A program made the translations under genes and the position numbers. Under the pieces are notes generated by a model. The model was not told where the DNA came from and ran no database searches. It saw only the letters and a program-made list of their open reading frames with translations. Below, in pieces: positions 15,910-38,761 of a stretch of 59,955 nt of DNA. Positions within the stretch are counted from its first letter, which is position 1; the number at the start of each line of letters is the position of its first letter. This stretch comes from Bacteroidota bacterium (GTDB lineage: Bacteria; Bacteroidota; Ignavibacteria; UBA10030). Where the stretch lies: positions 1 to 59,955 of the forward strand of contig JACVXU010000013.1 in NCBI GenBank assembly GCA_015661185.1. The letters are read 5' to 3'.

Positions 15910-16650
15910 ATGCTACTTTCGATCATCATACCGGCCTTCGATGAGGAGAAAAAACTTTCGCTCGACATGCAAGCTGCTGCAACATTTCTCTCGAGAAATC
16001 AGATAACAGGAGAAGTAATCATTGTCGACGATGGAAGCTCTGATCGAACAGCTGCGCTCGCTCAGGAGGCGTCCCTCTCTCCGGGTATTCCACGAATCGT
16101 CATTCAAAACCGCCCTCATCGGGGAAAAGGACATGCCATTCGAACCGGCATCCTGGCTTCCCATGGTGAGTATGTGATGTTCGCCGACAGTGGATTGACG
16201 ATCCCCTTTGAGCACATATTGAAGGGATTGCGATTACTTCAACAAGGTGCATGTGATCTGGCCCTTGGATCGAGAAGACTCCCCGGAAGCATCATCCGGA
16301 GAGAACAAGATTGGGATCGGAAAATCATTTCGCACCTTTTTCACAACTTGATGGTTCGATGGATGCATGTTCCTTCTCATCTTACCGACACACAATGTGG
16401 GTTCAAAATCTATCGGGGAGAACTCGCACGAACACTGTATGCCGAGTGCATCACGGAAGGGTTTATGTTCGACATCGAAATCATTCTCCGTGCAGGGAAC
16501 CACGGATATCGGATTATGGAATTCCCTGTCGAATGGACATGTGATCGAGATAGCCGGATCAGCGTCCGGCGAAGTACCCATCAGATCCTGAAAGAGATTC
16601 TGCTGATCCGTCGAGTTCTCTTCAAGTCGAAATCCCGGGACCACACCTAA
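15910..16650 (+). CDS. Family 2 glycosyltransferase (polyprenol-phosphate sugar synthase-like)
   Basis: MLLSIIIPAFDEE..., VIIVDDGSSDRTA, FADSGL, DTQCGFK. These are the GT2 / dolichyl-phosphate glucosyl- or mannosyltransferase-like motifs. ATG at 15910 preferred over the TTG at 15874. Confidence 0.85.
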   Translation: MLLSIIIPAFDEEKKLSLDMQAAATFLSRNQITGEVIIVDDGSSDRTAALAQEASLSPGIPRIVIQNRPHRGKGHAIRTGILASHGEYVMFADSGLTIPFEHILKGLRLLQQGACDLALGSRRLPGSIIRREQDWDRKIISHLFHNLMVRWMHVPSHLTDTQCGFKIYRGELARTLYAECITEGFMFDIEIILRAGNHGYRIMEFPVEWTCDRDSRISVRRSTHQILKEILLIRRVLFKSKSRDHT

Positions 16651-17584
16651 GAACCGATGCAGGTTTCCCTTCCTCCCCCTCCTCAAACACAATAGCCCAC
16701 ATCTTCTCCTGACTCGAAATGTATCTCTGGATCTCTGTCGGGGTCATCACCATACATGCTGTCGAGATCGCATCGCTTTTTGCAGCTGCGTCTGAACAAA
16801 CCCAGGCAGCCCGCAGCCGGTCCACAGGTTCACCGGTTCGCGGGTCCGCGATGTGTAACCATTTTCTTGTCCCCGACCCGCCAAGGCCTTGGTCCTTCAG
16901 AATAACTTTCTGAATTACCTCCGTGAATTCTCCCGGGGAACTCAAGGTTGTTGACCATCCCCTCTCGCCAGCATGATCGCCGAATGCAAAGGCAGAGCTC
17001 ATTCCACCATGCACAAGTGCCGAACTCACTCCCCATTCCTTCAGTAGTTCCACTCCCCGATCAACGGCATATCCTTTTCCAATTGCACCCAGATCGACAA
17101 GTGGTACGAAGTCACCGACACCAACCGACAGACTCGCCTCGTCCAACTCGAGCAGATGCATTCCGCTCTGTTCCTTTGCACGCTCACGTTCACCGGAGGA
17201 ACCAGCAACACTCGTTCTCCCCTTCCAACCATCCACCATTCTTCCAATCGCAACATCGAACGCTCCCTCAGTCTCTTTCCAATACTCCAAGCTGAGTGAG
17301 AGACATTGAAATGCATCGAAACTGACACGGATCTTCCCATGCGGGGGCAGATTATTGATCCTTGCAATGTCGCTGTTCGGGAGATACCTGCTGAGCTCTA
17401 GTTCGAGTCGATCAATCTCCTGAAACGCAGCAAATGCTGCGCTGTGTGAAAAGTGAAGATCTTCATCCGCGATTAGGATTTCAAAGATCGTTGCCATCGC
17501 CCGGTGTTCAAACCGATGGATATTCTCTTTCCTTGTATCTATCGTATCAGTCACTTTGAAGGATCCTTTTGGATCTTTTCCCAA
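16622..17584 (-). CDS. apbE: FAD:protein FMN transferase (ApbE family)
   Basis: HRAMATIFEI (the MGT-type motif region), DLGAIGKGYAVDRGVELL, and the general ApbE layout. No N-terminal signal peptide is visible. Confidence 0.8.
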   Translation of the reverse strand: MGKDPKGSFKVTDTIDTRKENIHRFEHRAMATIFEILIADEDLHFSHSAAFAAFQEIDRLELELSRYLPNSDIARINNLPPHGKIRVSFDAFQCLSLSLEYWKETEGAFDVAIGRMVDGWKGRTSVAGSSGERERAKEQSGMHLLELDEASLSVGVGDFVPLVDLGAIGKGYAVDRGVELLKEWGVSSALVHGGMSSAFAFGDHAGERGWSTTLSSPGEFTEVIQKVILKDQGLGGSGTRKWLHIADPRTGEPVDRLRAAWVCSDAAAKSDAISTACMVMTPTEIQRYISSQEKMWAIVFEEGEEGKPASVLRCGPGIST

Positions 17585-19119
17585 AGATCGAATGTGATAT
17601 AGCCGCGTATCTCTTTTCCCGGCCGCAGAATCACAGGATTGGCAAACAAGGGAACATAGAGGATTCGGTGACCGGGTGATTGTTCTTCATACAGTTTTGT
17701 CAGGAGAGTATTCTCAACTTCGGGTGATGCGAGTATTACGCGGGTTGGCGAAAAATCTTTTTCAACATTCCCCCACCACCCGACATGCTTCAAAGAACGA
17801 AGATACCAGGGAAGCGGCCAGTAGTCATCACCCGGATAGACAACCTGCACAGGCATCGATGATCCTTGCTCCGAATGTCGTGCAGCATTCTCCACCATTG
17901 CCGCGACATGCTGGACATCTTTTGTTGGATGAGCATAGACATAGGGATTTCCAGGGTCATCGCAGTACTTGAAATTTGAGAGTGAAGCCTGCCACGCGAG
18001 GTGGCCGATGATAAGGAGAACAATGGCGAAACCGACATGGCGCCATTGTTGTTCCCGAAACCACTCGAGAAACGCTACAACAGCGCAGGCCGCCATCACG
18101 ATGAAGGCCTGCCATGCACCTACTATTAACCATGGAGTCTTGTAAGGGATTGCGGATGAGACGATGAACATGAAAAGACCATACAATCCCACAAAAAGTT
18201 TGAAGTCCCTCGCGCTCCGATCTGTTTCCGTTTTGTCTTTCAAGGCACTCCATATTCCGACAAGACCGAAGACAAGGATTGCGATCTCCGTCCACACCGG
18301 TCCTTCACTCCCTCTTGACCACGTGAGGAGTTTCAAGAAGTAGTACCAGGGGTGATCATGTCTTCCGCTTTCGCCCGCTCGTTGGAAATAGGTCTGATAA
18401 GCAAGCAGGGAATCTACAACACCATTCCAATTTGTGGTGAAGGATGAAAAGAAAAGAATGGCTGTGAGAGAGGCGGCGAGGATTACTACTCCCAAATTCT
18501 TGAGCGAAAGAGAATACTGTCTCTCCCCCTTTTGCCGGTGAAGGAGAATAACAACCAGTAGAGATAATCCCATACACCCGGCAGAAATGAGCCATGTCTC
18601 CTTCGTCGCATACATCAATCCGGCCTGAACACCTGCCAGAGCCGCCCAGATCGATTTTCCACTGAGGAGCAGCCGATAGATTGAAACGATGAAACCAAAG
18701 GTAAAACAAACCAGCAACATTTCCTGGATATAGTAGCGGCTGTAGAACACCGTCATAGGCGAGCAAGCAGTGAGAAGTGCTGCCCATGCAGTGGCTTGCC
18801 TCCCGAGACCTTTGATGAGAAAAAGAAGTAGGATGACAGAAAAACCACAGAGTGCCGGGACTATGCGTAGAGTTGTTTCTGTTACTTCGGTAAGATTGTT
18901 CTTTGACGAGAGCCAGGCTGGTATCAGTGTCAGATAATTCAGGGTAGGTCCGTGATACTCCTTCTTGTCGTAGTGATACGTGCCATGTTCAAGGAGCTCA
19001 CCGAACTTGACGGCGTGAACAGCTTCATCAGTATGCATCGGGCGAAGGTCGAGCGATAACAGGCGCAGGAGCGCACCTGCTATCAGCGCAACAACAACAA
19101 TCCACCCTTCCCATTTCAT
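17551..19119 (-). CDS. GT-C fold membrane glycosyltransferase (PMT_2/ArnT-like, TIGR03663-like)
   Basis: 522 aa and polytopic. N-terminal RLLSLDLRPMHTDEAVHAVKF...YHGPTLNY is typical of this GT-C family. Confidence 0.7.
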   Translation of the reverse strand: MKWEGWIVVVALIAGALLRLLSLDLRPMHTDEAVHAVKFGELLEHGTYHYDKKEYHGPTLNYLTLIPAWLSSKNNLTEVTETTLRIVPALCGFSVILLLFLIKGLGRQATAWAALLTACSPMTVFYSRYYIQEMLLVCFTFGFIVSIYRLLLSGKSIWAALAGVQAGLMYATKETWLISAGCMGLSLLVVILLHRQKGERQYSLSLKNLGVVILAASLTAILFFSSFTTNWNGVVDSLLAYQTYFQRAGESGRHDHPWYYFLKLLTWSRGSEGPVWTEIAILVFGLVGIWSALKDKTETDRSARDFKLFVGLYGLFMFIVSSAIPYKTPWLIVGAWQAFIVMAACAVVAFLEWFREQQWRHVGFAIVLLIIGHLAWQASLSNFKYCDDPGNPYVYAHPTKDVQHVAAMVENAARHSEQGSSMPVQVVYPGDDYWPLPWYLRSLKHVGWWGNVEKDFSPTRVILASPEVENTLLTKLYEEQSPGHRILYVPLFANPVILRPGKEIRGYITFDLWEKIQKDPSK

Positions 19120-19943
19120 TGCACAGCCCTACCGTAGACCTCGACTTCTATGTAATGATTGAGTTCGTTCGCTGTATTCCCGCGGCTGTAGAGACGGACA
19201 TACCTCCCTTGTACACCCTTCGCATCGATCAGTTTGCCTTCCGATGTCTCGACATAACTCATGTCCTTCCCCACTCCCCTTCCGGACGAATTATCGATGT
19301 CATTATTGAACACTGTCTGCACATTGGAGATGAAGTCGGAATCATCCGCCACCTGGACAATGAAATCGTGATAGACGACGGCTTGTTTATGATAATGCCA
19401 TACCACAAGGGCGTAGATATTATGACGGGCCTTTAAGTCGATCATGACATACTGCAATTTAGGGCCAAGCTCCACGAAGCTCCCTTCGGCGGCCTCCTTA
19501 TCGCCGTCGGTGATCATCGAAAGTTCGCCGATGACCGGTTGTTCGTCGGAGCTGCTGACCGCTTTTTTAAACGCAACGTTCCTCGTGCCTGCCGGAGCAA
19601 GGAATGGCGGGCGTGGTTTGCCAAGAGGCTTTTCCAGGTTTAGTACGGCAATATTCGTCGGCGTTCCCACAAACATTGGCTTAGGAAGTTTGATGTCCAG
19701 TTGAACGAGCTGCACATTTGCTGCCTGACCTGCAGGAGCGGTGGTTGTTGTCTGTCCCGGTTGAGATGTCGTCTGACCTGAAGATTGACCCTGCACAATT
19801 CCCTGCGCAGGCGCGGCAGCCTGCTGTCGCTGAGGTGTTTGTTGAGCCGGCTGCTGATTCTGCTGCTCAGAAGATTTTTGACACGACATCAGCAAGACTG
19901 TGCAGACGAATACGAAAAGGAGTTTACTCCAAGACTGTTTCAC
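19116..19943 (-). CDS. Lipoprotein with a Gln/Thr-rich linker and a C-terminal F5/8 type C (discoidin)-like domain
   Basis: Lipobox LLMSC. Low-complexity stretch QQNQQPAQQTPQRQQAAAPAQ...SSGQTTSQPGQTTTTAPAGQ. The C-terminus (RYVRLYSRGNTANELNHYIEVEVYG) resembles a galactose-binding/discoidin fold. Confidence 0.65.
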   Translation of the reverse strand: MKQSWSKLLFVFVCTVLLMSCQKSSEQQNQQPAQQTPQRQQAAAPAQGIVQGQSSGQTTSQPGQTTTTAPAGQAANVQLVQLDIKLPKPMFVGTPTNIAVLNLEKPLGKPRPPFLAPAGTRNVAFKKAVSSSDEQPVIGELSMITDGDKEAAEGSFVELGPKLQYVMIDLKARHNIYALVVWHYHKQAVVYHDFIVQVADDSDFISNVQTVFNNDIDNSSGRGVGKDMSYVETSEGKLIDAKGVQGRYVRLYSRGNTANELNHYIEVEVYGRAVQ

Positions 19944-19946
19944 GTG

Positions 19947-20615
19947 TTACTCCTTCACAAATTGTTCGGGTGATTGTTTAACATAGGCTATGGTGAGATA
20001 TAGATGAACGATCGCAACAAGCATCAGGAAGAGCGCACTGTATCCATGCAACCGGATGAGGACTTCTTCTCCTTCCGTTCCAAACAGGGGATACAATCCA
20101 AGGATGACGGTGAGCATGAGAGGAAGCGAGAGAACACTCACGAGCCAAAAGCAGGTCTTCCAGGCAAATCGGATAATGTTTTCTTTTTCCTGATACCGAT
20201 TGTTGATGAGCCCTCGGACTGCTTCCCCGTCACTTCTCAGGAAACGGAGGCGATGCGCCCAGAGAAGTGCCAGAGCCGAAAGAGAAAGTGCAAACAACGG
20301 TGCCACGGTTACGTGGATCACGAGAAGAATTCCGGTCAGATGATCGCCAAGAACGAGGAGTGGTACGAATCCGGTTATCGCGAGCAGGAGGAAAACAAGA
20401 ACCGTCAGGAGGAAAACAATTCTTCGTGCGAAGAGAAGGATATTCTCAGCAAGAAGAGCCTGTCGCTTCTGCCAAACAAGTAAAGGAAGCCTCATCTGAG
20501 AGACGAGAAACTCCCGAACGGCATTCCAATTCTTCCATTGACGTTTGAGATCATAGGCCAGAGCAGCGAAGAGTAGCAAAAGAGCCAGGCCAGAGATAGT
20601 TCGAAACAATGTCAT
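19947..20615 (-). CDS. Polytopic membrane protein with conserved intramembrane His residues (candidate b-type cytochrome/quinone-interacting subunit)
   Basis: About 5 predicted TM helices with His in or near them (LLVIHVTVAP, LWAHRL, LIRLHGYSALF, VAIVHLYL). Start ATG at 20615 overlaps the cytochrome c stop as ATGA. The track start at 20702 would overlap by 91 nt. Confidence 0.6.
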   Translation of the reverse strand: MTLFRTISGLALLLLFAALAYDLKRQWKNWNAVREFLVSQMRLPLLVWQKRQALLAENILLFARRIVFLLTVLVFLLLAITGFVPLLVLGDHLTGILLVIHVTVAPLFALSLSALALLWAHRLRFLRSDGEAVRGLINNRYQEKENIIRFAWKTCFWLVSVLSLPLMLTVILGLYPLFGTEGEEVLIRLHGYSALFLMLVAIVHLYLTIAYVKQSPEQFVKE

Positions 20616-22498
20616 TCTTCTTCCAGTGCAAGTGAACGGATCATACGCGCGAGCCCGCGCATGGTATAAAGAAGCACAATCGATGCCATCAGGAGAAAAC
20701 AAAGGATGATGATCAGTTGTAACCCGGGCCGGAAGAGAAACGACATCGAGAAAAGCCAGGCTGAGATTGCGGCTTTATCCTGAAAGTGTGTCATGCGCTC
20801 GACAGAATCTTGATCTGCAACATAGGGAGAGGCGACAAGCACCGTGCCGAAATGAAACGGAGCATCAGTCGCATGACAATCTGTGCAACCACGAACGCCG
20901 AGTGATTGCGCCTTGGGTCTGACGTCATGTGCAAGCGGCCAGAGATAGGGGGTTGCCGCTTCGTGATCCGATGTCTCAAGCTTTCCATCGGGTCCCATCG
21001 AGAAGAGTTTCCCCGAACTTACATAGACAGGAGTTCGCGTCGAGTCCAAAGCTTGCAGGCATTGGAGAATACCGTGAATATCACTCTCTCGTAAGATCGG
21101 CCATCGCGACAATACGCGTGTCGTATCTTTGGAGAGGATTTCCATCACAAGAGGGCGAACAACTTCCGGTAGGATAGGTGTCACATCATTGTCTTTTCTG
21201 AATCCCCAAAAGGCCGGCCAAAAAAGATTGTGGGGAGCATATGTGCCGTTTGCCTGTTTTGCAAAAACAGGAGCAACAATCTGCGGTAAGGCATCGTCCG
21301 CCTTATCGGCTTTGGGTATTCCGAGTGCATGGGCTCTTGATGTTTTCACACGAACTGTTGCCGAGGCGGGCCATGGACCCGAGTGGCAGGCGGTGCATGC
21401 AAGTCTTTCAAAATGGACAGGTGGAATTCCAAGATGCTGTGGTCGCGGTGCACCCTTTTTCCCCTGCCGGGGGATTGAAGTGTCATCGATTCCGATATGA
21501 CATCCCTTGCAGGTGAGGAATGCAGCAGCCGGTTTTCCGTTCAATTCCGCTTCGCCTTCATATCCACGCACCATTTGATGATCCAGACCATTTCTATGGC
21601 AATCGACACAGACCATTCCTGCAGCAAGATGAACGTCCTCTTCCCCCTCCCAGCGCTCCGGTTGTGACGGATCGATGACCTTTGAGGAGTGGCAGAAGGA
21701 GCATTGGGTGTGTGGCATCTTGCGGGGAACGTTGAAAAGAACTTTTCCAGTCACATCGAACCGCGACGAGTTGTAGGTAACTGTCGGTGGAAGAAAATTT
21801 GATTTCTCCGGAGGGACGGCGGAGTAGAGATCATAACTATCCGGCATCTCTCCTGCAGTTCCCTGCACGGTAGTAAATCCACTGCTCGCAGCAGCGGCCC
21901 AGCGGAAATTCTGCCGAAGGACCTGAACACCATATTCCGCTTGATTCTGTGCAGGATCGGCATTATGACAACTCTGACAATTCACATCGAGACTTCCCGA
22001 GACTTGCCAGCGCATGTAATCGTTGAGATCCTGAAGAGTCTCGTTTTCTCCAACTCCCCCCCCGGGCAAATGACGCCCGAATGTCGTAAGGAATTTGAAG
22101 GTCGAAAGACCAAGTGCAGCAGGATTGTAGGTCCCATTCCATTTCCTGTACGAGAGCGGAATTTGCACTGCTGCCTGACGGTCGACGAAAATCCACGGCT
22201 CACCGGCACGACCAGGGTGAACACTCGAATCTGCAGCATTGAAGTGCCATCCGGCTCGAATTTTCTCATAGTCGTGACATTTCCGGCACGTCTGTTTTGC
22301 TGAGAATGGCATGACAGGTTTCTCATCAAGGTTGATGACGTGATCGAACTCGTCACACAACTTGATCAAATGAACCGGCAGAGCCCTGTTACCATCGGCC
22401 ACATCTCCGATGGTAGTGGAAGTCTGCCCTGCAACAGTTCCGAGAGCCATAAAGAGAGGAATCAGGATACGAACAATATTCTTCCGTTCAGTCATCAT
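20612..22498 (-). CDS. Heptahaem c-type cytochrome with N-terminal signal peptide and C-terminal membrane anchor
   Basis: Seven CxxCH motifs: CRKCH, CQSCH, CSFCH, CVDCH, CKGCH, CTACH, CTDCH. Hydrophobic C-terminus LQLIIILCFLLMASIVLLYTM. Confidence 0.9.
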   Translation of the reverse strand: MMTERKNIVRILIPLFMALGTVAGQTSTTIGDVADGNRALPVHLIKLCDEFDHVINLDEKPVMPFSAKQTCRKCHDYEKIRAGWHFNAADSSVHPGRAGEPWIFVDRQAAVQIPLSYRKWNGTYNPAALGLSTFKFLTTFGRHLPGGGVGENETLQDLNDYMRWQVSGSLDVNCQSCHNADPAQNQAEYGVQVLRQNFRWAAAASSGFTTVQGTAGEMPDSYDLYSAVPPEKSNFLPPTVTYNSSRFDVTGKVLFNVPRKMPHTQCSFCHSSKVIDPSQPERWEGEEDVHLAAGMVCVDCHRNGLDHQMVRGYEGEAELNGKPAAAFLTCKGCHIGIDDTSIPRQGKKGAPRPQHLGIPPVHFERLACTACHSGPWPASATVRVKTSRAHALGIPKADKADDALPQIVAPVFAKQANGTYAPHNLFWPAFWGFRKDNDVTPILPEVVRPLVMEILSKDTTRVLSRWPILRESDIHGILQCLQALDSTRTPVYVSSGKLFSMGPDGKLETSDHEAATPYLWPLAHDVRPKAQSLGVRGCTDCHATDAPFHFGTVLVASPYVADQDSVERMTHFQDKAAISAWLFSMSFLFRPGLQLIIILCFLLMASIVLLYTMRGLARMIRSLALEEE

Positions 22499-23857
22499 TC
22501 AAACCTTGAACTCTTGATTGTCAAACGTCAGCTTTCTGCCTGTCTCAACCGCTTCGTTGACCTTGAGAACAGTCACAGCAGTTTCGTAAGCCACTTCGGC
22601 AGGGCAGTTGAGTCTTTCTTTTCCCTGGATGGCATTGAAGAAATTATCCAGGTGAGGTTTGTGGTACGGGTCATCGAATTTCACAGGAAGTTCAAACGAT
22701 GGTGGAGATACGGTTTCCCGTACATCAAGCACTGCATCGGTCTGAGGTTTCTTTTGTTCTCCGGTCGGCGCTTTCAAATATCCCATTGATACCCACTTGT
22801 CCCATTCGGGCGCGGTCGGCTCCCGGTATGCAGCACCGCGGCCTCCCGATTCTGAAATGACCAACGTCCCCTGATCGCCCATGAAACTTTCGAAGTAGCC
22901 CTGATTGCTGTTCGTGGAAATGGTTTGGTAGAAGGCACGGACTTTTCCGAATGTCGTTTCGTATTCAAATGTCGCGAGGACGGTATCAAACCACTCATGC
23001 GTCCTCCGATCGTAGTAGTCGATACCTCCGCTCGCCACGATAGTGTTCGGACGGGCATTCAAAAACCAGTTATAAATATCCAGCTGATGCGATCCGAGGT
23101 CCACGACAGGTCCGCCGCCGAGATGCCGGTACCACCGCCAGTTTCGAAATTCCTCCATCGAGCGGAAGCCATACTTTTTCAGAATGGAAGGTTCAATGGA
23201 AGATCCCTTCGGCCAGCCATTGTCAGGTTGAAGAGACCGGTTCCACTGTCCATTCACCGTGGTAATTCTTCCGAGAATCTTCGCTTCCTGAATGAGTCGT
23301 TTGTACGAATGAACATACTTGGGATTGCTTCTTCGTTGATGCCCGATTTGCAGCAGCTTCCGCGATTGCCGGGCGGCGCGAACCATTTGCCGTGCACCCT
23401 CTAGGGTGTTGGACATTTCCTTTTCGCAATAGACATGAAGACCAGCGCTCAAACAGTCGACCGTGTGCTGGGCGTGCCAGAAATCGGGAGTGGCAATCAG
23501 GACGGCGTCCAGTCCTTTTTCTTTTGCCAGCATCTGACGATAATCTTCGTACGCGTTGACTTTGTGGCCAAACTTATCAAGCATGCGCTGGGCACGTTTC
23601 AAGTTATACGCCTCCCAGATATCGCAGACCGCTTTGAATCGGACATTGGGGATTTTCAGGCATGCGTTCATCAATACCTGACCCTGCGCCCCGGCCCCCA
23701 ACAAGGCAATCCTCAACTCGTCTGAGGAAGAGGTCTTCTGTTCTGCCATCGCAGCCTCACTGCTCGAATTCGTTATGAGCAATCCTGCACCTGCAGCGGC
23801 GGTATATTGTAAAAACTTACGTCGATCAATTCCTGTCATCTTTCGTCTTTCACTCAA
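22499..23857 (-). CDS. Tat-signal Gfo/Idh/MocA-family oxidoreductase
   Basis: Twin-arginine leader GIDRRKFLQYTAAAGAGLL. Rossmann segment RIALLGAGAQGQ and the Gfo/Idh/MocA layout. Its stop directly abuts the cytochrome start. Confidence 0.85.
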   Translation of the reverse strand: MSERRKMTGIDRRKFLQYTAAAGAGLLITNSSSEAAMAEQKTSSSDELRIALLGAGAQGQVLMNACLKIPNVRFKAVCDIWEAYNLKRAQRMLDKFGHKVNAYEDYRQMLAKEKGLDAVLIATPDFWHAQHTVDCLSAGLHVYCEKEMSNTLEGARQMVRAARQSRKLLQIGHQRRSNPKYVHSYKRLIQEAKILGRITTVNGQWNRSLQPDNGWPKGSSIEPSILKKYGFRSMEEFRNWRWYRHLGGGPVVDLGSHQLDIYNWFLNARPNTIVASGGIDYYDRRTHEWFDTVLATFEYETTFGKVRAFYQTISTNSNQGYFESFMGDQGTLVISESGGRGAAYREPTAPEWDKWVSMGYLKAPTGEQKKPQTDAVLDVRETVSPPSFELPVKFDDPYHKPHLDNFFNAIQGKERLNCPAEVAYETAVTVLKVNEAVETGRKLTFDNQEFKV

Positions 23858-30753: not shown

Positions 30754-30766
30754 TGTATTGTTCCCG

Positions 30767-31837: not shown

Positions 31838-34800
31838 TCAATTTTTGTTGACTGAAATTCGCAGCCCTTCCGGTTTTCCCCCCTCGGGTGTGCGAAAACG
31901 AGCGCAAGCACCCCAATCGCCACCACCGTTACTAATTTTCATCATCAGGGAGTTCCAACCTTGTTTGAGTACGGCCGGAACAACGTCTTCTCCCGGTGTT
32001 ACCGCCCTTGCAGCTTCTTTGGCGTGGATAAGTTCACCGTTGAGCCACACTTTGAGTCCATCATCGCTCCCGACTTCCAATTGTGCTTTGCATTCTTTTG
32101 GAGACCAGACATTGGTTCGGACATAGACCACCTTCAATTCGCCTCCGATGATTTTATCAAACTCAAGCCGCCACAGCCGGTTCGGGTCGGTCATACTCTG
32201 GAATGGTATCCACTGCACTGATGAAGCATCTGCCCTTTCCGGTGCGAACGCTTCCGCGAAGAGATTTGCATTTTCCTTTATGTAAGGACCTGTAATTTCC
32301 CAGGAGGTGATATAGTCCTCGAGGCGCTCAATAATTCCGACAACTCCACGAGCCCGTCGGACGAGTGCATCATTCTTGGAGCTTTGTGCAATTTTCTTGA
32401 CATCTGCGGTAATGGCAGGGCCTGCGGTTCCGGCAATCCTCTCTGCGATATTCACAACGGCTGCTTCCGCTTCCTTTTGCAGCAGTTCGTCGTTCAGGTA
32501 GCCTGAAGCCAATTGAAATGCCTCAAGCGATCGAGCCTCTCCCACTGCTGAAAGCAACAATTTGAGCTCCTCTTTATTGGGAGCGATCTTCATGGCTTCC
32601 TGATATTTCCTGGTCGCATCATTGGCCGATTGTTTGGTATCGAGCCCAATGAGTCGAACTGCTCCCCGAAGTGCCAATGTGTTTTCTGTGATCACTTTTG
32701 CAGTCGTGGCTATCTTCCATAGATCGGTATACGGTTCTGAACTCGGCCATTCAGAAAGTGCACGGATGGCGGAGAGACGGATTTCACCATTCTTATGATT
32801 CAGTGCCGTGCGGAGAACCGGTAATGATGCGGGGGCTCCAATTTTTCCAAGAACATTCACAAAGGAAATGATAACCGCTTGTTTCTTTATCGAAGGATAA
32901 GCTGCCAGAATCGCTTCATCCTCCAGTGCAGGAGCAGGAATTCGTTTTGCTATGGCAACCAGGGCCAATTCAAACTCACGCCGCTCGGCGTCATCCTTCG
33001 CCAGGGTGAGAAATTCCATCATGGCGGGGATTTCATCAGCAGTTCCAAGCACCTTCAGTACTTTCGCCGATTCCAGACGAACCGCGACAGCAGGATCTTT
33101 GGATGTTTTCAACAGCGCAGGTATGGCGGAACTCATCTTTCGCTCCCCCATACTTTTGATCACTTCCACTTTTACTTTGCTGTCACCTGCTTTTATCAGC
33201 TGAAGCAGCGCTTCCTCGGTGCCCTGAGCGTTAAGTTCATTGAGACTATTTCTCGCGTCGTTTTGTTCTGCGCCTTTGGATGATGCTGCCGCACGAGCCA
33301 AGAGTGGTACAACGGTCGCATCGCCCATGTTGCCCAGGCTTCTGAGAGCTGCAGAACGGACATGTTGATCTTTCGATGAGACCGCAGAAGTCACAATGTT
33401 TTGGAGCTCGGCATCACGGTGATTCGAAAGTGAAGCAACCAGTTGAGCCTGACAGGCTGGAGGCAAACCTTGATAGGTGCGAGCGATCGTCCTTACCTGC
33501 TCGATACTGGATATTTCTCTTACGAGTTGAACAATATTTCTCTTACGAGTTGAACAAATGCCGGATGAAGATCGACCTCTTTACTCTTCAGCGTGTTCAC
33601 AATCAACTCCGATGCATTGGCAGGGTCGGCATGGATGATTCCCCTGAGTGCCGCAGAGCGAACGGGTACGGGTTCACCCGGTACATTCAACTCCCGATAG
33701 ACAGCAAGGGCACGATCCTTGTTTCCTGTTGAACTCAAGTGAGAAGCACAAACAAGGAGAGCATCGAGGAGATGTGGACGCAATTGAGATTTCATTCCCC
33801 GTTTCAAATCCTCCAGAATGGTGAGCGCCTCCGGAGTCCCGATGTTTCCGAGCGCTGAAACTACCGCAGATGCGACGACTGTATCTTCGTGAGCAACAAG
33901 CCGCTGCAACGCGGAAGTTGCACTCTGAACTCTTCGGTTTCGCAAAGCGTTGATGATCCCAACCATCGTTGAGGCTTTTGCTGTCGGCAGTGCTTGAAGA
34001 AGTGCTTGTTCTGCCGTTGATCCTTCTATGGATTCCAAAACAAAGAGCGCCATATTCGCTGTCTTGTCATCGGAAAGCATTGGGATCAATCGAGGGATTG
34101 AGCTCTCACTCCCCTTGAGCGACAACTTTTGGAAGATAAATTGCTTCCCACCGGACGATGCAGCACCTTCCAAGAATCCCAGGAAGAGTTGTTCAATTTT
34201 CACGCGTGCTTCAGGTAAATCATTCACGTCACGGAGAAATTCATCCAACTCAGCCATCGTGGCACGACTGTCACCGTACTGATAGGTTGAGAGCTTCGAT
34301 AGATAAGATTTCAGGAGACCTTCATCGAAGAAACTCATCGGATCGAACGGAACCGGCGACGTATTGATGTCATAATCGCCGAGTGCAAACTGGATACCAT
34401 CGAGGTAGTGCTGCAGCACTGCCGGAATTGCCAGCACTTCATTGTTGTGCCCAAGCGAGCAATAGAAAAGCCGACCTTTCCCGGACATCCGTACCCAGCT
34501 GATGGGAATATCGCGATCGGATTTCTTCACTCCAGAAGCTTTTCGATTCCGATCAAGTTTCATGTCGAGAGAAAGAAGAACGCGGCTGTTCTTACGAAGA
34601 TTGTTCTGACGAATGCGATAGATCTCGTCCTTGATGAGGAAGTCCTTCCCTTGAAAAGCGGCGTTCAACGGATGTGATGGATCGACGATTTTCACCCCCC
34701 ACGTTCCATCAGCCGTCCAAGGGTGACTGTCGAAGACTCCCCCAAACAGTTTCTGGGCTTCCGGCCATGTCGGGAAATTGTCGGTCGCGGCATGAAGTCC

Positions 34801-35241
34801 AACGATACCCTTACCGGTGGCAATAAAATCGAGGAGACTCTTTCGAAGAAGAGGATCATCGAATTTCAATTGTGTGGTATTATTGAAACAGACCGCATCG
34901 AAGCGCTGAAGGTTTTCCGGTCTAAAGATGGTAAGATCCTTGCTCATCACGGTCTGGAATGCTCCCGTTTTTCTCCCCATGACCTCCAGGGCTTTGCTCG
35001 CGCGCTCAATGGACGTGTGCTGAAATCCTTCAGAAAGGTTAAAGACAAGCAGCGTACGCGGTTGTCTTGGTTGAACGGTGGACTTCATGGGCACAGCCTG
35101 TTCAATCGCTTTTACCTCATCTTGCGAGAGCTGCGCATTTGCAGGAATGGCGAAGAGAAGAACGATAACGGCGACAATGATCAGGCTAACAAGTGATGGG
35201 TGTCTCAAGGTCTTTCCTCGTTGAGTTAGATGTGAATTCAC
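31838..35241 (-). pseudogene. ThuA-domain / HEAT-repeat / C-terminal beta-sandwich exported protein, split into two ORFs (33520-35241 and 31838-33466) by a 23-bp tandem duplication
   Basis: The upstream ORF has a signal peptide, a ThuA-like domain (LLVFNLSEGFQHTS..., GIVGLHAATDNF, ISWVRMSGKGRLFYCSLGHN) and HEAT repeats. The downstream ORF continues the HEAT repeats and ends in a beta-sandwich-like domain (LEVGSDDGLKVWLNGELI...). Removing one 23-bp copy joins ...AFVQLVREI to SSIEQVRTIARTYQGLPPACQAQLVASLS... in frame. Confidence 0.75.
33512..33557. repeat. Perfect 23-bp tandem duplication (2 copies)
   Basis: tatttctcttacgagttgaacaa at 33512-33534 is repeated exactly at 33535-33557. The length is not a multiple of 3. 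It creates the TAA stop at 33520-33522 on the minus strand. Confidence 0.95.
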
Positions 35242-36557
35242 AAATGCCAGGGACTTCGCATTGGACGTGCGAGCATCCGATCAGCTTCCGGATCGTTCAC
35301 GAATTGCTCTGTTGCAGGATCCCACTGCACTTTTCGCCCGAGTTTCATGGCGATCAAACCTAAGTGACCGACCATGATGGATCGGTGTGCAATTCTTGCC
35401 GGTGTAATGGCCTCAGCGCGACTCCGGATACAATCAAGGAAATTTTGATGATGATCGTCGCTCTTGTATAAATGAATTTCATTCGGACCAATCGCGGATG
35501 TGAGGAGCGATTTGTTCGAAGCATCGAATCCACCTCGATCAACCCAAATCCATCCTTCCGTTCCTTCAAATTGAACTCCCATACCTTTGGGCTGCTGTTT
35601 CTGATCCGCCACAATCATCGTGAATCCCTCTTTATACGTACAGACGAACCGGTAGCTTGTCGCCGTATCGAAAAGTCCGTCTTCAGCCTTCGGGAATTCG
35701 GCTACGCCTTCTATCTCGATGGGACTCGTCATCTCAGTGTCCATTCCCCACTGGGCGATGTCGACATGGTGACCGGCCCAATCGGTTATCATCCGGCCTG
35801 AATAATCGCTGATCCACCGGAAATTCCAATGACAGCGGTTGGGAGCGTACGGAACCAGAGGAGCAGGACCCAGCCACATGTCATAATCGAATCCCTCCGG
35901 GACAGGTGAAGGTTTGTAGCCTCCCTGATCGGAAATGCTGAATCCATACGGTAATCCAACCCGCACGGTCTTCACTTTACCGATCCTTCCATTCCGGACG
36001 AGTTCGCAGGCATACCGGAAGCTCTTCACCGAACGCTGCCAGCTTCCGGTTTGCCAGATGATACCATAGCGCTCCACTGCGTCGACGACAGCCCGTCCTT
36101 CTGCAATCGTGTAGGCCAGCGGCTTCTCTCCATAGATATCGAGACCTTTCTTAGCCGCTGCGACCGCAATCAGTGCATGCCAGTGATCCGGAGTTGCCAG
36201 GCTTATAGCGTCGAGATCACGTCTCTCAAGCAATTCGCGGAAATCGTCATACTCCGCACATCCCTTCTTTCCCGACTTCTCCTCCACCGTAGCAATCGCT
36301 TCCTTCCGCCGCTTCGCATCGACATCACAGATGGCGACAATCTGGGCTTCTGGCTTCTCAAGAAAGCTCTCCATGTTGCCTGTTCCCATATTACCGACAC
36401 CAATACATGCGAGGGTGATACGGTCGCTGGGAGCCACTGCACCCGATCGACCGAGCGCGGTGGAAGGAATAAACATCGGCAACCCGACCGCCCCAATGGC
36501 GGCTGCGGTTGCCTGTTTTAAGAAATCACGACGGCTTTTCTTTATGGTATTCTTCAC
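35238..36557 (-). CDS. Tat-signal Gfo/Idh/MocA-family oxidoreductase
   Basis: Leader KKSRRDFLKQATAAAIGAVGLPMF, then LACIGVGNMGTGN and ATPDHWH...YGEKP. Its stop overlaps the ThuA gene start by 4 nt. Confidence 0.85.
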   Translation of the reverse strand: MKNTIKKSRRDFLKQATAAAIGAVGLPMFIPSTALGRSGAVAPSDRITLACIGVGNMGTGNMESFLEKPEAQIVAICDVDAKRRKEAIATVEEKSGKKGCAEYDDFRELLERRDLDAISLATPDHWHALIAVAAAKKGLDIYGEKPLAYTIAEGRAVVDAVERYGIIWQTGSWQRSVKSFRYACELVRNGRIGKVKTVRVGLPYGFSISDQGGYKPSPVPEGFDYDMWLGPAPLVPYAPNRCHWNFRWISDYSGRMITDWAGHHVDIAQWGMDTEMTSPIEIEGVAEFPKAEDGLFDTATSYRFVCTYKEGFTMIVADQKQQPKGMGVQFEGTEGWIWVDRGGFDASNKSLLTSAIGPNEIHLYKSDDHHQNFLDCIRSRAEAITPARIAHRSIMVGHLGLIAMKLGRKVQWDPATEQFVNDPEADRMLARPMRSPWHL

Positions 36558-36584
36558 GCCAGGTCTCCTTATTCGATCTTGTGG

Positions 36585-37577
36585 TTACTTATCAAACGCA
36601 GCATCGAATGCGACAGCGGATTGAGAAAAATCGGTTTTACGCACAAATTCACATGCTTCACGTGCCCCATGTTCGCGTTCCATTCCGCTATCCTCCCATT
36701 CAACCGATAATGGCCCGGTATATCGGATATGATTCAGGGCACGAATAATTTCTTCAAACTTTACCGATCCATGACCGAGCGATCGGAAATCCCAACCGCG
36801 CCCGCGTGCACCGAAGTTCAGATGCGATCCGAGAATTCCGTTTTTACCATCGAGCTGAAGTGCCGCATCCTTCATGTGCACATGGAAAATTCGATCGGGG
36901 AACTCTTCGATGAATCGGACCGGATCAATCATTTGCCAGAGGAGGTGGCTCGGATCGAAATTGAAACCGAATGTTTTCCGTCTGCCGATGGCATCGAGAA
37001 CCCGGTGCGCTGTAACGATATCGAAGGCAATTTCCGTGGGATGAACTTCGAGCGCAAACTTCACTCCGCATTCATCATAGACATCGAGTATGGGATTCCA
37101 CATGGATGCAAAGTACTTGTAGCCATCTTCGATCATCGCATCGGTGACGGGCGGAAAGCTGTAGAGCAGATGCCAGATAGATGAACCGGTGAATCCATTG
37201 ACAACGTTGATACCGAGATTCCGGGCAGTTCGGGCCGCATCCTTCATCGTTTCCACGGCCCAACCACGTTTTTTTTCAGCATCTCCAGCACAGGAGGCCG
37301 GGGCGAAGCCATCCGACCGGCTGTCGTTGTTCAGGTCGCACACAAGCTGACCGGCCAGGTGATGGCTGATGGCAAAGAGTTTCAGATTGTGTTTCTTGAG
37401 GATGCGGAGCTGATGCTTACAATAGTCTTTGTCGACCGCCCCCTTGGTTACGTCGAGGTGATCACCCCAGCAAGCAAGTTCGAGTCCATCATAGCCCCAT
37501 GCCGAAGTCTTTTTTGCTAATGTCGTAAGAGGCAGGTCGGCCCACTGCCCCGTGAAAAGTGTCACGGGTCTTGACAT
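36585..37577 (-). CDS. Xylose isomerase-like TIM-barrel protein (sugar phosphate isomerase/epimerase family)
   Basis: 330 aa. GYDGLELACWGDHLD, FALEVHPTEIAFD, FNFDPSHLLWQ, HVHMKD. These are the AP-endonuclease-2/xylose-isomerase-like barrel motifs. Confidence 0.8.
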   Translation of the reverse strand: MSRPVTLFTGQWADLPLTTLAKKTSAWGYDGLELACWGDHLDVTKGAVDKDYCKHQLRILKKHNLKLFAISHHLAGQLVCDLNNDSRSDGFAPASCAGDAEKKRGWAVETMKDAARTARNLGINVVNGFTGSSIWHLLYSFPPVTDAMIEDGYKYFASMWNPILDVYDECGVKFALEVHPTEIAFDIVTAHRVLDAIGRRKTFGFNFDPSHLLWQMIDPVRFIEEFPDRIFHVHMKDAALQLDGKNGILGSHLNFGARGRGWDFRSLGHGSVKFEEIIRALNHIRYTGPLSVEWEDSGMEREHGAREACEFVRKTDFSQSAVAFDAAFDK

Positions 37578-37588
37578 CGTCCTTCTCC

Positions 37589-38761
37589 TTATTTATGCAT
37601 TGGTGTCCATTTCTTCGAACTTTTCGCGCTGGCAAGGACTGTCTCGATAAAGAGCATGCCGCGCAAACCGTCGTTCACATTGGGAAAATCGAGAGCAAGT
37701 TTATCCGGTTTTACCCCTTCGATGGATGCACGAACCGTCTCGGCAAAATTGCAGTAGATATTCGCGGACGCTTCGATGAATGCCTCTGGGTGACCGAAGG
37801 GAAGTCGTGTAGCGCGGGCGGCTGCAGGACTCTTCGCTCCGATGTACGAATTCCCCCGCCGGAATATTTGAACGGGACCGTCAGGTTCTTTTACATAGAG
37901 ATAGTTCGGATGTTCCTGATGCCATTCGAGACTTTTCTTGGTGCCATACACCCAGATGGCCAGATTATTTTCTTCGCCAATCGAAACCTGGCTGACATGC
38001 AAAATACCCTTTGCACCGTTCTCGAACTTCAAGAGACAATTACAATCGTCGTCGAGCCGGCGGTCTTTCACAAAGATGGTCAGATCGGCACAGACCTCTG
38101 TGATCTTCAGACCGGTGACATATTCCGAGAGGTTTTCTCCATGCGTGCCGATATCGCCCAATGCTCCAGCCGCACCGCTTTGTTCCGGATCCGTTCGCCA
38201 GACTGCTTGTACACTCCCTGTTTGTTCCAGCGGTGTGGCAAGCCACCCTTGCGGATATTGAACAACGATTTTTCGAATATCTCCCAATTCTCCAGCCCGT
38301 ACGAGATCGCGCGCCAGTTTTACCATCGGATATCCTGTATAATTGTGCATGAGAGCGAACACTTTTCTCGAGGCTTTTACGAGTTTCTTTAGTTCGCGGG
38401 CTTCCTGCGTATTGAACGTCATCGGCTTTTCACACATGACATGGAGGCCGGCATTGAGACAAGCCTGAGCGATCGGGAAGTGTGAGTTATTCGGTGTAAC
38501 GATGGTAACGCAATCGATTCTTTCCCCTTTTGGAAGTTGCCGTTCTTTTTTTATCATCTCTTCATAGCTGCCATAGACGCGCTTGGGATCAAGGAGGAGC
38601 TGCCTCCCTGTCTCCTGTGACTTTTTCAGCGTTCTGCTGAAGGCTCCGGCGACGATTTCTATTCCCCCATCCATTCGGGCAGCCTTCCGATGGACCTCTC
38701 CGATAAAAGCGCCGGGACCTCCGCCTGCCATTCCCAGTTTCAATGTTCGCTTGAGTTTCAT
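37589..38761 (-). CDS. Gfo/Idh/MocA-family oxidoreductase (no signal peptide)
   Basis: LKLGMAGGGPGAFIGEVH Rossmann motif, TPNNSHF...MCEKP. It is the first gene of the cluster. Confidence 0.85.
   Translation of the reverse strand: MKLKRTLKLGMAGGGPGAFIGEVHRKAARMDGGIEIVAGAFSRTLKKSQETGRQLLLDPKRVYGSYEEMIKKERQLPKGERIDCVTIVTPNNSHFPIAQACLNAGLHVMCEKPMTFNTQEARELKKLVKASRKVFALMHNYTGYPMVKLARDLVRAGELGDIRKIVVQYPQGWLATPLEQTGSVQAVWRTDPEQSGAAGALGDIGTHGENLSEYVTGLKITEVCADLTIFVKDRRLDDDCNCLLKFENGAKGILHVSQVSIGEENNLAIWVYGTKKSLEWHQEHPNYLYVKEPDGPVQIFRRGNSYIGAKSPAAARATRLPFGHPEAFIEASANIYCNFAETVRASIEGVKPDKLALDFPNVNDGLRGMLFIETVLASAKSSKKWTPMHK

Follow-up and report, generated by a model that had tools for sequence, protein, structure and literature searches.

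A Conserved Gene Module Joining a Tat-Exported Gfo/Idh/MocA Protein to a Heptahaem Cytochrome in an Ignavibacteria Contig: A Candidate Route from Periplasmic Sugar Oxidation to Quinone

Introduction

How does a bacterium reoxidise the nicotinamide cofactor that is trapped in a sugar dehydrogenase outside its cytoplasmic membrane? The question is raised by a gene cluster on contig JACVXU010000013.1 (assembly GCA_015661185.1), from the metagenome-assembled genome of an uncultured Bacteroidota bacterium (Ignavibacteria, UBA10030), the 59,955 nucleotides of which form the window of this analysis. The cluster is an unbroken chain of 16 open reading frames (ORFs, g1 to g16; Table 1) on the minus strand, running from 38761 to 16622. 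They encode five Gfo/Idh/MocA proteins, three predicted to be exported through twin-arginine translocation (Tat) and two cytoplasmic, together with DUF1080, ThuA and HEAT proteins, a TIM barrel, a major facilitator superfamily (MFS) permease, a heptahaem cytochrome c, a cytochrome-b-like protein and ApbE. In Bacteroidota and Planctomycetota, few kinds of Tat substrate are as numerous as the periplasmic Gfo/Idh/MocA enzymes, on which a broad-specificity route of glycan breakdown, discovered recently, depends. How the NAD(P)H trapped in them is reoxidised in vivo is acknowledged to be an open question, for which the genes described here name candidate partners: a heptahaem cytochrome family, a probable small cytochrome b and a cytoplasmic ApbE.

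A sequence-only reading of the same DNA had pictured the cluster as a periplasmic oxidative glycoside-processing system whose nicotinamide-dependent dehydrogenases are reoxidised through a dedicated cytochrome chain. The picture that emerges here is narrower. We read the region as a composite catabolic locus for periplasmic 3-keto glycoside processing, in which g11, g12 and g13 would form a three-subunit glycoside dehydrogenase:quinone oxidoreductase resembling FdnGHI, and we give this reading an even chance of being right. Comparative evidence strongly supports the cytochrome link for g11, and 3-keto-type glycoside chemistry is supported by the families to which the encoded proteins belong. 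Gene content, export signals, haem motifs and conserved synteny are direct observations, from which the complex, its direction of electron flow, its substrate, the flavin and the roles of g14, g15 and g17 are inferred.

Conservation of the Dehydrogenase–Cytochrome Module

Relatives of g12 were sought in one genome per GTDB species. The scan gave 276 of them, and the best 80, all from metagenome-assembled or single-amplified genomes, were examined, the window proteins being compared with the loci by tblastn (single loci are cited by L numbers). The 80 belong to the Bacteroidota/Ignavibacteriota, Calditrichota, KSB1, Planctomycetota (Phycisphaerae, Sedimentisphaerales, Pirellulales) and Omnitrophota. 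Of the 78 loci in which sequence upstream of g12 is available and the pair can be tested, 77 have a g11 orthologue as the immediate upstream neighbour of g12, at cytochrome identities of 41–72%; the sole exception, L083, has g12 to g16 without g11 directly upstream. A g13-type ORF follows g12 in 75 of 83 loci. Among the 48 loci having at least 8 kb of downstream sequence, 43 contain ApbE (g16) and about 38 contain g14, g15 and, usually, a convergent GT2 gene (g17). On the other side, 65 loci could be tested for a DUF1080 gene immediately upstream of g11, and 42 have one. The module order is also seen in contigs that were looked up independently and bear precomputed Pfam labels. The dehydrogenase–cytochrome neighbourhood, which the sequence-only reading had proposed to compare, is strongly conserved in genomes of both the Fibrobacteres–Chlorobi–Bacteroidetes (FCB) and the Planctomycetes–Verrucomicrobia–Chlamydiae (PVC) groups.

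The cluster consists of three blocks (A, g1–g6; B, g7–g10; C, g11–g16), and the conserved module is the last block only, together with the convergent GT2 gene g17; the g1–g10 region is variable among the related loci. The extent given earlier, 16622 to 38761, is correct for the chain of ORFs, and the conserved unit runs past 16622 to include the GT2 gene. Four loci (L026, L031, L033 and L066) have a minimal module, g11-g12-(g13)-g16, without g14, g15 and g17; its neighbours there are Tat proteins of about 320 amino acids, a sulfatase and an altronate dehydratase. In the Planctomycetota up to four other Tat-Gfo genes are present, and a cytoplasmic Gfo gene and a transporter gene are placed between g13 and g14. 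Neighbours of the module in the loci include GH88, GH26, GH76, amylase, sulfatase and altronate dehydratase genes. A Rosetta-stone test found CxxCH in none of the 372 ORFs of the loci that resemble Gfo, DUF1080, ThuA, HEAT or F5/8 proteins. The identities of module proteins to their counterparts correlate only moderately across loci (Spearman 0.57 for g11 against g12), which is not used as evidence.

The short Tat-signal proteins deserve a separate remark. One or two of them, about 320–335 amino acids long and without a Pfam match, stand before minimal modules (L033:7221–8180; L066:6394–7383 and 7528–8487; L081:6514–7521 and 7571–8548), and they may replace the DUF1080 protein or the TIM barrel in those lineages.

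A Second Pairing of a Gfo Protein with a Cytochrome

A Melioribacteraceae locus (L086) contains the full module plus a second gene set on the divergent strand (L086:240–3111, minus), which encodes a permease, a Gfo, a TIM-DUF1080 fusion, a Tat TIM barrel, a 512-amino-acid cytochrome (cyt512) and a Tat/lipobox Gfo. Cyt512 is unrelated to g12: it has an N-terminal anchor, four CxxCH motifs of the NapC/NirT type and a domain of the formylglycine-generating enzyme (FGE)-sulfatase type (SUMF1-like). A metagenome scan with cyt512 yielded 49 loci (L087–L135), 36 of them with enough sequence, and in 34 of these 36 the Tat/lipobox Gfo gene starts 10–368 nucleotides downstream of the cyt512-type gene. 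There are thus two multihaem cytochromes, both anchored in the membrane and unrelated to each other, that are firmly tied to a Tat-exported Gfo, which argues that the pairing is functional. A literature search found no report on a NapC-FGE/Gfo pairing. A Tat TIM barrel is often encoded upstream of the cyt512-type gene, and in L029 an FGE-domain protein without the haem part keeps its Gfo neighbour.

The Three Proteins of the Candidate Complex

The RR-x-F leader of g11 is invariant in 74 orthologues, in which the GxGxxG, EK and D..G.H..D motifs are also kept; against TIGR01409 the window protein scores 20.0 bits (cut-off 16.7). Judged by these motifs, the orthologues, which are 52–81% identical to the window g11, look like competent NAD(P)-dependent, Tat-exported dehydrogenases. 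They form a subfamily of their own, g11 being about 25% identical to g3 and to g9. The window g11 has the same sequence (100% identity) as MBM2844764.1, a protein annotated "afr 2".

The heptahaem assignment of g12 is confirmed: the protein has seven CxxCH motifs, and all seven are invariant in 15 homologues (47–73% identity). Eight further His residues are invariant too. Together they are enough to give each haem two His ligands, as suits an electron wire and not a catalytic haem. At about 90 residues per haem, the protein contains substantial non-haem structure. Its Pfam matches are local only, to C7, NapC/NirT and c3 families; the NapC/NirT match (PF03264) aligns g12 residues 260–310 with profile positions 122–172 at 33.9 bits. 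An assignment of g12 to the NapC/NirT quinol dehydrogenases (NrfH, CymA) was considered and rejected, in view of its C-terminal anchor, its seven haems and the partial PF03264 match. A search of solved structures with the g12 family profile gave nothing better than E 1.6e-3. More than 1,300 homologues are present in a set of 5.8 billion proteins, nearly all of them unnamed or "hypothetical", and an exhaustive representative search resolves the family into 349 clusters at 50% identity (E ≤ 1e-30). The protein represents a previously undescribed family of seven-haem cytochromes without a solved relative.

The third protein, g13, is a probable small cytochrome b or quinone-site subunit, to judge from its sequence features.

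Proposed Electron Route and the Place of ApbE

If the three proteins form a complex, g11 would be the catalytic subunit with non-exchangeable NAD(P), g12 the electron-transfer subunit, with seven bis-His c-haems in place of the iron-sulfur (Fe-S) clusters of FdnH, and g13 a small cytochrome b that reduces menaquinone. Electrons would pass from the sugar to bound NAD(P)H, and from there through the c-haems and a b-haem to the quinone. Menaquinone (about −74 mV) accepts electrons from NAD(P)H (−320 mV) and cannot donate them to NAD(P)+, so flow from sugar to quinone is the plausible direction. Quinone reduction would pull an otherwise unfavourable alcohol oxidation, and its further benefit would be either energy conservation or nicotinamide enzymes that stay oxidised in the periplasm. 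The module probably lets cells pass electrons from extracytoplasmic sugar oxidation into respiration.

The role of g16 in this scheme would probably be to install a covalent flavin mononucleotide (FMN) in the cytoplasm before Tat export, the flavin serving as the converter between two-electron and one-electron transfer. A candidate client is g11, since no other protein encoded nearby folds in the cytoplasm before it is exported. The SG[ST], H-x-x-DP-x-TG and DA-x-x-T motifs of g16 align with those of E. coli ApbE (4xgw), and the positions of the Ser-His-Asp triad, described in a review as catalytic in ApbE, are kept. About 50 orthologues (L003–L083) have short hydrophilic N-termini with neither lipobox nor signal peptide. 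Lacking a secretion signal, g16 belongs to the rarer cytoplasmic class of ApbE, of which the Klebsiella pneumoniae enzyme that flavinylates a soluble fumarate reductase is a known example. It is retained in all four minimal modules, so ApbE goes with the redox genes and not with the glycosyltransferases. The g16 clade begins with a conserved H-R-F-x-H-x-A-M-A-T motif.

The remaining module genes point to a lipid-linked sugar. The membrane protein g15 belongs to the Agl23 family by its TIGR03663 score, which spans 430 of 435 profile positions, and a flippase or transferase role is predicted for it. The weak NCBIfam matches of g17 are to ArnC, dolichyl-phosphate hexose transferase, AglJ and PpgS, and the gene converges on ApbE in at least 29 loci, and also in L003 and L086. 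No protein of the module is conserved better than the lipoprotein g14, whose identity has a median of 72% and reaches 89% across phyla; its linker is not conserved. Solved structures searched with g14 gave nothing better than E ~1e-3, and an AlphaFold2 model from 22 sequences was unusable, with a predicted local distance difference test score (pLDDT) of 40. In our scheme g17 and g15 would probably supply a flipped polyprenyl-phosphate hexose, which might be used to glycosylate the Q/T/P-rich linker of g14. That g14 has a glycosylation pathway dedicated to it can reasonably be guessed; less likely is that a lipid-linked sugar is oxidised as by DprE1.

The g14-type domain also occurs outside the module, and a wider role for it is therefore indicated. 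Planctomycetota proteins of 440–480 amino acids contain it as a tandem pair (L084:9436–10761; L085:10001–11362), and their genes directly follow those of an extracytoplasmic function (ECF) sigma factor and an unassigned protein of about 510 amino acids, probably ECF sigma/anti-sigma pairs.

A more specific version can be formulated, which we find doubtful and put forward tentatively. Before its export by Tat, a nicotinoprotein of the Gfo type with non-exchangeable NAD(P) would receive a covalent flavin from a cytoplasmic ApbE, at a site other than the canonical one; it would then dock on a dedicated tail-anchored heptahaem cytochrome and a cytochrome b, so that periplasmic glycoside oxidation reduces quinone directly. 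This would be a new class of respiratory dehydrogenase, and its logic would have evolved at least twice, because a second Gfo subfamily pairs with the NapC-type tetrahaem-FGE fusion. If the oxidoreductase proposal as such is true, polysaccharide degradation would be linked to respiration in abundant sediment and soil lineages, and new sugar-oxidising bioelectrocatalysts would become available. With the partners named by the module, four or five recombinant proteins would be enough for a direct test of the question.

Evidence against the Proposed Complex and Competing Explanations

A number of observations weigh against the oxidoreductase proposed above. The known pathway encoded by BT2156-2160/AL1-5 is redox-neutral: the same dehydrogenase is recycled by reducing 3-ketoglucose, and no acceptor is needed (10.1101/2024.03.25.586180). 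The link to the cytochrome, which had been extended to the Tat-exported Gfo enzymes in general, stands for g11 and fails for the AL3-like g3 and g9. The loci were selected by similarity to g12, so that the frequency of the g11 subfamily without the cytochrome lies outside the sample. The nearest PDB entries of g11, DgpA and GFOR, match only its N-terminal Rossmann half, from which the substrate is not inferable. No structural model backs a contact between g11 and g12, the AlphaFold2 prediction of g12 from a 15-sequence alignment being unusable (pLDDT 42). The matches of g13 are weak, with 19.4 bits for PF01292 (Ni_hydr_CYTB; cut-off 30.1) and 23.6 bits for TIGR01583, the gamma subunit of formate dehydrogenase (cut-off 115.9), and only two of its His residues are invariant in 75 of 75 positional orthologues, a third being kept in 59 and a fourth in 48 of them. 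Finally, g14, g15 and g17 are conserved yet have no necessary part in the model.

The client of ApbE is the weakest link. The canonical flavinylation motif D-x-x-[ST]-G-A-[ST] is absent from the 15–40 kb part of the window and from all 83 loci. Relaxed [ST]G[AS][ST] matches, including GSGAS in g9, are conserved in no orthologue group, the conserved Ser and Thr residues of g11, g12 and g13 do not resemble a flavinylation motif, and none of the proteins neighbouring g16 has an FMN_bind domain. No flavin, Fe-S or other two-electron/one-electron converter was identified in the cluster, and we know of no flavin-free route by which the hydride of NAD(P)H held in a protein reaches a c-haem. In its general form, the earlier claim that the nicotinamide enzymes are reoxidised through the cytochrome had been drawn from gene order; it is not borne out, given the missing converter and the redox-neutral precedent. 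It also left four conserved genes unexplained, namely those for the F5/8-type lipoprotein, the Agl23-like GT-C protein, the cytoplasmic ApbE and the GT2 protein.

The alternative that survives best, unlikely as we consider it, is that the pathway of the locus is redox-neutral and that g11-g12-g13 are a reset device without stoichiometric flux, which reoxidises NADH-trapped enzymes when 3-keto products leak, either directly or by generating catalytic amounts of a 3-keto-sugar that acts as diffusible hydride acceptor for g3 and g9. Unless a hydride acceptor is supplied, purified AL3/BT3 stays reduced; it has to be primed with a 3-keto-sugar, and its authors propose recycling by product reduction (10.1101/2024.03.25.586180). 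A repair function would also agree with the lack of a link between the cytochrome and the AL3-like g3 and g9 themselves, and with the single g11 that serves clusters in which the other Tat-Gfo genes number from one to four. For repair, however, a cytochrome b and a seven-haem subunit with a tail anchor would be a large outlay, the architecture mirrors that of bona fide respiratory dehydrogenases, and the high conservation of g11 is what is expected of a primary enzyme. For the oxidoreductase, the stalling of AL3/BT3 in the reduced form is a precedent for the need of a reoxidant.

Modification of an envelope or lipid-linked sugar is a distinctly less probable explanation. Here g17 would make a polyprenyl-phosphate hexose, g15 would flip or transfer it, g11 would oxidise the sugar in the manner of DprE1, which oxidises decaprenyl-phosphoryl-ribose, g12 and g13 would pass the electrons to quinone, and g14 would be an acceptor or carrier. 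The score of g15 above the Agl23 cut-off (187 vs. 126 bits), the resemblance of g17 to polyprenyl-phosphate hexose synthases and the documented function of Agl22/Agl23 all speak for it, as do the joint occurrence of g14, g15 and g17 with the redox genes across phyla and the GT2 and GT39 genes that flank the Alistipes AL cluster too. Yet the redox core with ApbE persists without g14, g15 and g17 in the four minimal modules, the module holds no envelope-assembly genes, and the neighbours are catabolic (permeases, cytoplasmic Gfo and TIM-barrel proteins, DUF1080 proteins, glycoside hydrolases, sulfatases), as a glycoside dehydrogenase would have them.

It is also improbable, and somewhat more so, that there is no direct electron transfer between g11 and g12. 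The proteins g12 and g13 would then serve another respiratory or extracytoplasmic task with an ApbE-dependent flavoprotein encoded elsewhere, g11 being merely co-regulated. ApbE clusters commonly mark extracytosolic electron-transfer systems, the module has no canonical flavinylation target, so that at least one partner may be encoded elsewhere, and L083 has g12 to g16 without g11 directly upstream. Against this stand the fixed order of g11 then g12, at zero-to-short spacing in 77 of 78 loci from at least five phyla, which is far stronger than co-regulation usually gives, and the unrelated second cytochrome, which is equally paired with a Gfo.

Reverse flow from quinol through g13 and g12 to g11 as a periplasmic reductase of 3-keto-sugars or other carbonyls is very improbable: the local NapC/NirT match of g12 to a family of mostly quinol dehydrogenases, the NapC-like cyt512 and the reduction of keto sugars by the Gfo enzymes GFOR and AFR would favour it, but electron transfer from menaquinol to NAD(P)+ is strongly uphill and impossible without energy input, and a C-terminal anchor with a cytochrome b partner is what quinone-reducing dehydrogenases have, NapC-type proteins being anchored N-terminally.

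Layout of the Locus and Its Upstream Genes

The coordinates of the genes are collected in Table 1. The minus-strand gene order from 38761 to 16622 in the ORF listing agrees with the one described before. The 16 ORFs amount to 15 genes because g4 and g5 are one gene, broken by a 23-nucleotide tandem duplication; the earlier count of 15 genes was therefore right, with one of them split. As nearly every gene in 480–49985 is on the minus strand, co-directionality is little evidence for a cluster, the neighbouring genes sharing that strand too, and we rejected it as an argument. The earlier description of the cluster as co-directional was right about the strand; what exceeds chance here is the tight spacing and the conserved synteny. 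The overlaps of 4 nucleotides at 35241/35238, 20615/20612 and 19119/19116 and the abutment at 22499/22498 had all been given correctly, the second of them holding with a g13 start at Met30 of its ORF. The gap between g2 and g3 is 27 nucleotides, and the remaining gaps are at most 16 nucleotides after refinement of the starts from the translations, except that the g4 and g5 ORFs are 53 nucleotides apart; g15 and g16 overlap by up to 34 nucleotides, depending on the uncertain start of g16. The range quoted before, from a 34-nucleotide overlap to a 27-nucleotide gap, thus covers most junctions and misses the one between g4 and g5.

Table 1. Genes and boundary region of the cluster, with family matches and export signals; products are predicted
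Feature	Position	Strand	Product or description	Matches and signals
Upstream boundary	38762–39290	minus	Intrinsic terminator of the phosphofructokinase (PFK) gene, then untranslated leader of about 450 nucleotides before g1	
g1	37589–38761	minus	Cytoplasmic Gfo/Idh/MocA, levoglucosan-dehydrogenase-like	PF22725 93.9 bits; PF01408 71 bits
g2	36585–37577	minus	Xylose-isomerase-like TIM barrel	PF01261 (AP_endonuc_2) 143.2 bits
g3	35238–36557	minus	Tat-exported Gfo, PF19051 type, AL3/BT2158-like	PF19051 121.4 bits; PF01408 66.7 bits; leader SRRDFLK
g4/g5	31838–35241	minus	One secreted protein of about 1120 amino acids with ThuA, HEAT and C-terminal beta domains (ORFs 33520–35241 and 31838–33466)	PF06283 (ThuA) 143.6 bits; HEAT_2 40 and 95 bits; Sec leader
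g6	30767–31837	minus	Lipoprotein with one DUF1080 domain	PF06439 146.5 bits, residues 160–351; lipobox LMITSC
g7	29701–30753	minus	Cytoplasmic Gfo/Idh/MocA without leader	PF01408 110.3 bits
g8	28460–29689	minus	MFS permease, nucleoside:H+ symporter (NupG/XapB-like)	PF03825 (Nuc_H_symport) 318.7 bits
g9	27193–28452	minus	Tat-exported Gfo, PF19051 type	PF19051 410.7 bits; leader TRRRFIQ
g10	23850–27176	minus	Lipoprotein with a long HEAT region, then two DUF1080 domains	PF06439 313.5 bits (two stretches); HEAT_2 92.7 bits; true start Met35; lipobox LLSGC
g11	22499–23839	minus	Tat-exported Gfo/Idh/MocA of a distinct subfamily	PF01408 69.1 bits; PF02894 57.5 bits; leader DRRKFLQ
g12	20612–22498	minus	Heptahaem cytochrome c, 628 amino acids	N-terminal signal peptide; one C-terminal membrane helix
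g13	19947–20615	minus	Membrane protein, 222 amino acids; probable b-type cytochrome or quinone-site subunit	4–5 helices
g14	19116–19943	minus	Lipoprotein with Q/T/P-rich linker and F5/8-type-C-like domain	PF22633 23 bits, under cut-off; lipobox LLMSC
g15	17551–19119	minus	GT-C-fold membrane protein, Agl23 family	TIGR03663 187.2 bits (cut-off 126.25); PMT_2 37.6 bits
g16	16622–17584	minus	ApbE-family FAD:protein FMN transferase without signal peptide; start codon uncertain	PF02424 159.8 bits
g17	15874–16650	plus	Convergent GT2, polyprenyl-phosphate-hexose-synthase-like	PF00535 65.8 bits

Upstream, the PFK terminator can be read directly in the sequence as a stem-loop and T-run at about 39210–39250. 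The leader before g1 is GC-rich and could hold a promoter or a regulatory RNA; an Rfam search of the whole window and of the 530-nucleotide leader matched no family. A scan for consensus terminators and promoters gave no excess over shuffled sequence (19 terminators within the cluster vs. 18.7 expected). No regulator gene adjoins the cluster. Downstream, the chain is bounded by the convergent plus-strand gene g17, followed by mutS. A plus-strand ORF of 491 amino acids between mutS and g17 (14254–15729), whose real start is probably near MGFYPQPNLW..., was rejected as a part of the module, as it has no Pfam match and a counterpart in no related locus. Farther away on the minus strand lie an envelope block with lpxD, an lpxC-fabZ fusion, lpxA, bamA and uppS (42293–49985), an efflux block of the TetR/HlyD/ABC/OEP type (3592–10698) and a gene for a 1496-amino-acid hybrid sensor kinase with about seven PAS domains, HisKA, HATPase and a receiver (53845–58335), which is too distant to be assigned as the regulator of the cluster.

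Pfam profile searches bear out most of the family content recognised earlier: five Gfo proteins (PF01408 above cut-off in all), AP_endonuc_2, an MFS permease, ThuA, HEAT_2, PF06439 and ApbE were found. The twin-arginine leaders of g3, g9 and g11 are present as described, and the two other Gfo proteins have no signal. The three DUF1080 proteins of the sequence-only reading proved to be two, g6 and g10, with three modules between them. As a third candidate g5 was rejected, its C-terminal domain having no PF06439 match even at E ≤ 10.

In block A, g1 scores 124.5 bits against the NCBIfam model LevoglcsnDh, under the cut-off of 650. Its N-terminus is the Rossmann motif itself, without a signal peptide, and that of g2, MSRPVTLFTGQW, has no hydrophobic leader, so both proteins are predicted to be cytoplasmic. 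The g1-g2 pair is 58–83% identical in L006, L077, L037 and L029. The leader of g3 scores 20.2 bits against TIGR01409 (cut-off 16.7), and g3 is 34% identical to g9. The g4 ORF contains ThuA and HEAT, the g5 ORF HEAT and a beta-rich C-terminal domain, in different frames. A perfect tandem duplication of 23 nucleotides, TTGTTCAACTCGTAAGAGAAATA twice, at about 33520–33565 on the minus strand shifts the frame and creates a stop; deletion of one copy joins g4 and g5 into a single ORF, and in L006, L072 and L077 the g4-like and g5-like matches share one frame. The break is either a recent inactivating mutation or an assembly artefact.

In block B, g7 is kept together with g8 and g9 in FCB and Calditrichota loci, and g8 scores 309 bits against TIGR00889, under its cut-off of 446. 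The best PDB matches of g9 are 8tdf (E 2e-27) and 8tdh (E 3e-24), which are AL3/BT3 structures, and g9 is the paralogue nearest to them. In the proposed 3-keto route, a ring hydroxyl of the sugar would be oxidised, the aglycone eliminated and the product hydrated. Blocks A and B would each contribute an AL3/BT2158-like Tat dehydrogenase (g3, g9) and a large HEAT protein with ThuA or DUF1080, and their cytoplasmic Gfo proteins, TIM barrel and permease would handle the imported product.

Comparison with Known Systems

In the BT2156-2160/AL1-5 system, C3 of the glycoside is oxidised by a Tat-exported Gfo presumed to bind its NAD tightly; elimination of the aglycone and hydration of the product fall to a TIM-barrel protein and a DUF1080 lipoprotein, and there is a second, cytosolic Gfo (Liu et al. 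2021, PMC8121099; Nasseri et al. 2024, 10.1101/2024.03.25.586180). The present cluster likewise has a Tat-Gfo, a DUF1080 lipoprotein, a xylose-isomerase-like barrel and a cytosolic second Gfo, and AL3/BT3 are the best PDB matches of g3 and g9. Like the Alistipes fosmid that yielded AL1-5, which also bears GT2 and GT39 genes (10.1101/2024.03.25.586180), it has GT2 and GT39-type genes alongside. Against the BT_2158 equivalog model (NF058561, cut-off 750), g3, g9 and g11 score 170, 157 and 101 bits over their N-terminal 260–290 or so residues only, far under the cut-off, so they are relatives and not equivalogs; against the BT_2159 family (NF058563, cut-off 650) g7 scores 40.8 bits and g1 has no match at E ≤ 0.001. 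Periplasmic DUF1080 lipoproteins are predicted in g6 and g10, with lyase or hydratase activity predicted from the family, and the secreted TIM barrel of AL1/BT2156 has its counterpart in g2, which has no signal peptide. Unlike the known system, the cluster has a cytoplasmic TIM barrel, DUF1080 and ThuA fused to long HEAT arrays and no SusR-type regulator; the known system, in turn, is without cytochrome, cytochrome b and ApbE. The cluster thus belongs with the 3-keto chemistry at family level and is not orthologous to the Bacteroides system. The periplasmic 3-keto glycoside system envisaged by the sequence-only reading stands to that extent, with g1 and g2 placed in the cytoplasm.

The same reading had held the wiring of such dehydrogenases to cytochromes to be uncharacterised. 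Our literature searches for a link of Gfo/Idh/MocA or DUF1080 proteins with cytochromes found nothing relevant, and no paper connecting Gfo/Idh/MocA and multihaem cytochromes turned up in the searchable literature; the idea itself is not new, since Nasseri et al. proposed cytochromes as possible reoxidants in one speculative sentence (10.1101/2024.03.25.586180).

Other likenesses concern single parts of the cluster. As in ThuA/ThuB of Sinorhizobium and Agrobacterium, which form 3-keto-trehalose, a ThuA gene stands beside a Gfo gene (g3 and g4, translationally coupled by their 4-nucleotide overlap); here, unlike there, export signals are present on both proteins, and the ThuA domain is part of a longer, frameshifted gene that adds HEAT repeats and a further beta domain. 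GFOR of Zymomonas mobilis is the prototype of a Tat-exported Gfo carrying non-dissociable NADP, and it works by a ping-pong mechanism with two sugar substrates and no redox partner protein. The g11 protein, which has GFOR among its top PDB matches, is exported by the same predicted pathway and, unlike GFOR, is paired with a candidate redox partner. The g17-g15 pair recalls Agl22/Agl23 of Haloarcula hispanica, where Agl22 (GT2) makes and Agl23 flips hexose-P-dolichol, and the actinobacterial Ppm1/Pmt, in that a GT2 is paired with a GT-C protein and a nearby Thr/Pro/Gln-rich lipoprotein could be the acceptor; in contrast to Agl22/Agl23, the pair is found in a bacterium, within a redox and catabolic module. 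Like the cytoplasmic ApbE of K. pneumoniae, g16 lacks a signal peptide and has an intact triad. Unlike that enzyme, it has no FMN_bind or DxxSGAT neighbour, and the only protein nearby that is exported folded is the Gfo g11.

Two respiratory systems come closest to the proposed complex. The flavin adenine dinucleotide (FAD)-dependent glucoside 3-dehydrogenases (G3DH of Agrobacterium and Halomonas; LacABC of Caulobacter) consist of a glucose-methanol-choline (GMC) flavoprotein, a small hitch-hiker subunit and a cytochrome c subunit. The proposal made here is analogous, with periplasmic oxidation of a glycoside at C3, transfer of electrons to a c-type cytochrome and the respiratory chain, and a Tat-dependent location. 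The difference is that the candidate catalytic subunit is a nicotinamide-dependent Gfo and the cytochrome an unrelated heptahaem protein; Pfam finds no GMC or FAD-binding domain in the 16 ORFs. FdnGHI and HyaABC ([NiFe] hydrogenase-1) differ in having Fe-S clusters and Tat hitch-hiking where g12 has seven c-haems and a Sec signal, and a Mo/W or NiFe cofactor where NAD(P) is proposed for g11; the match of g13 to FdnI is the weak one of 23.6 bits given above. The resemblance to them is architectural only, and it extends to a Tat-exported catalytic subunit, a transfer subunit with one C-terminal helix and the same gene order, with g13 as candidate for the small cytochrome b. If the proposal is true, a nicotinamide-based member would join the small set of periplasmic dehydrogenase–cytochrome complexes.

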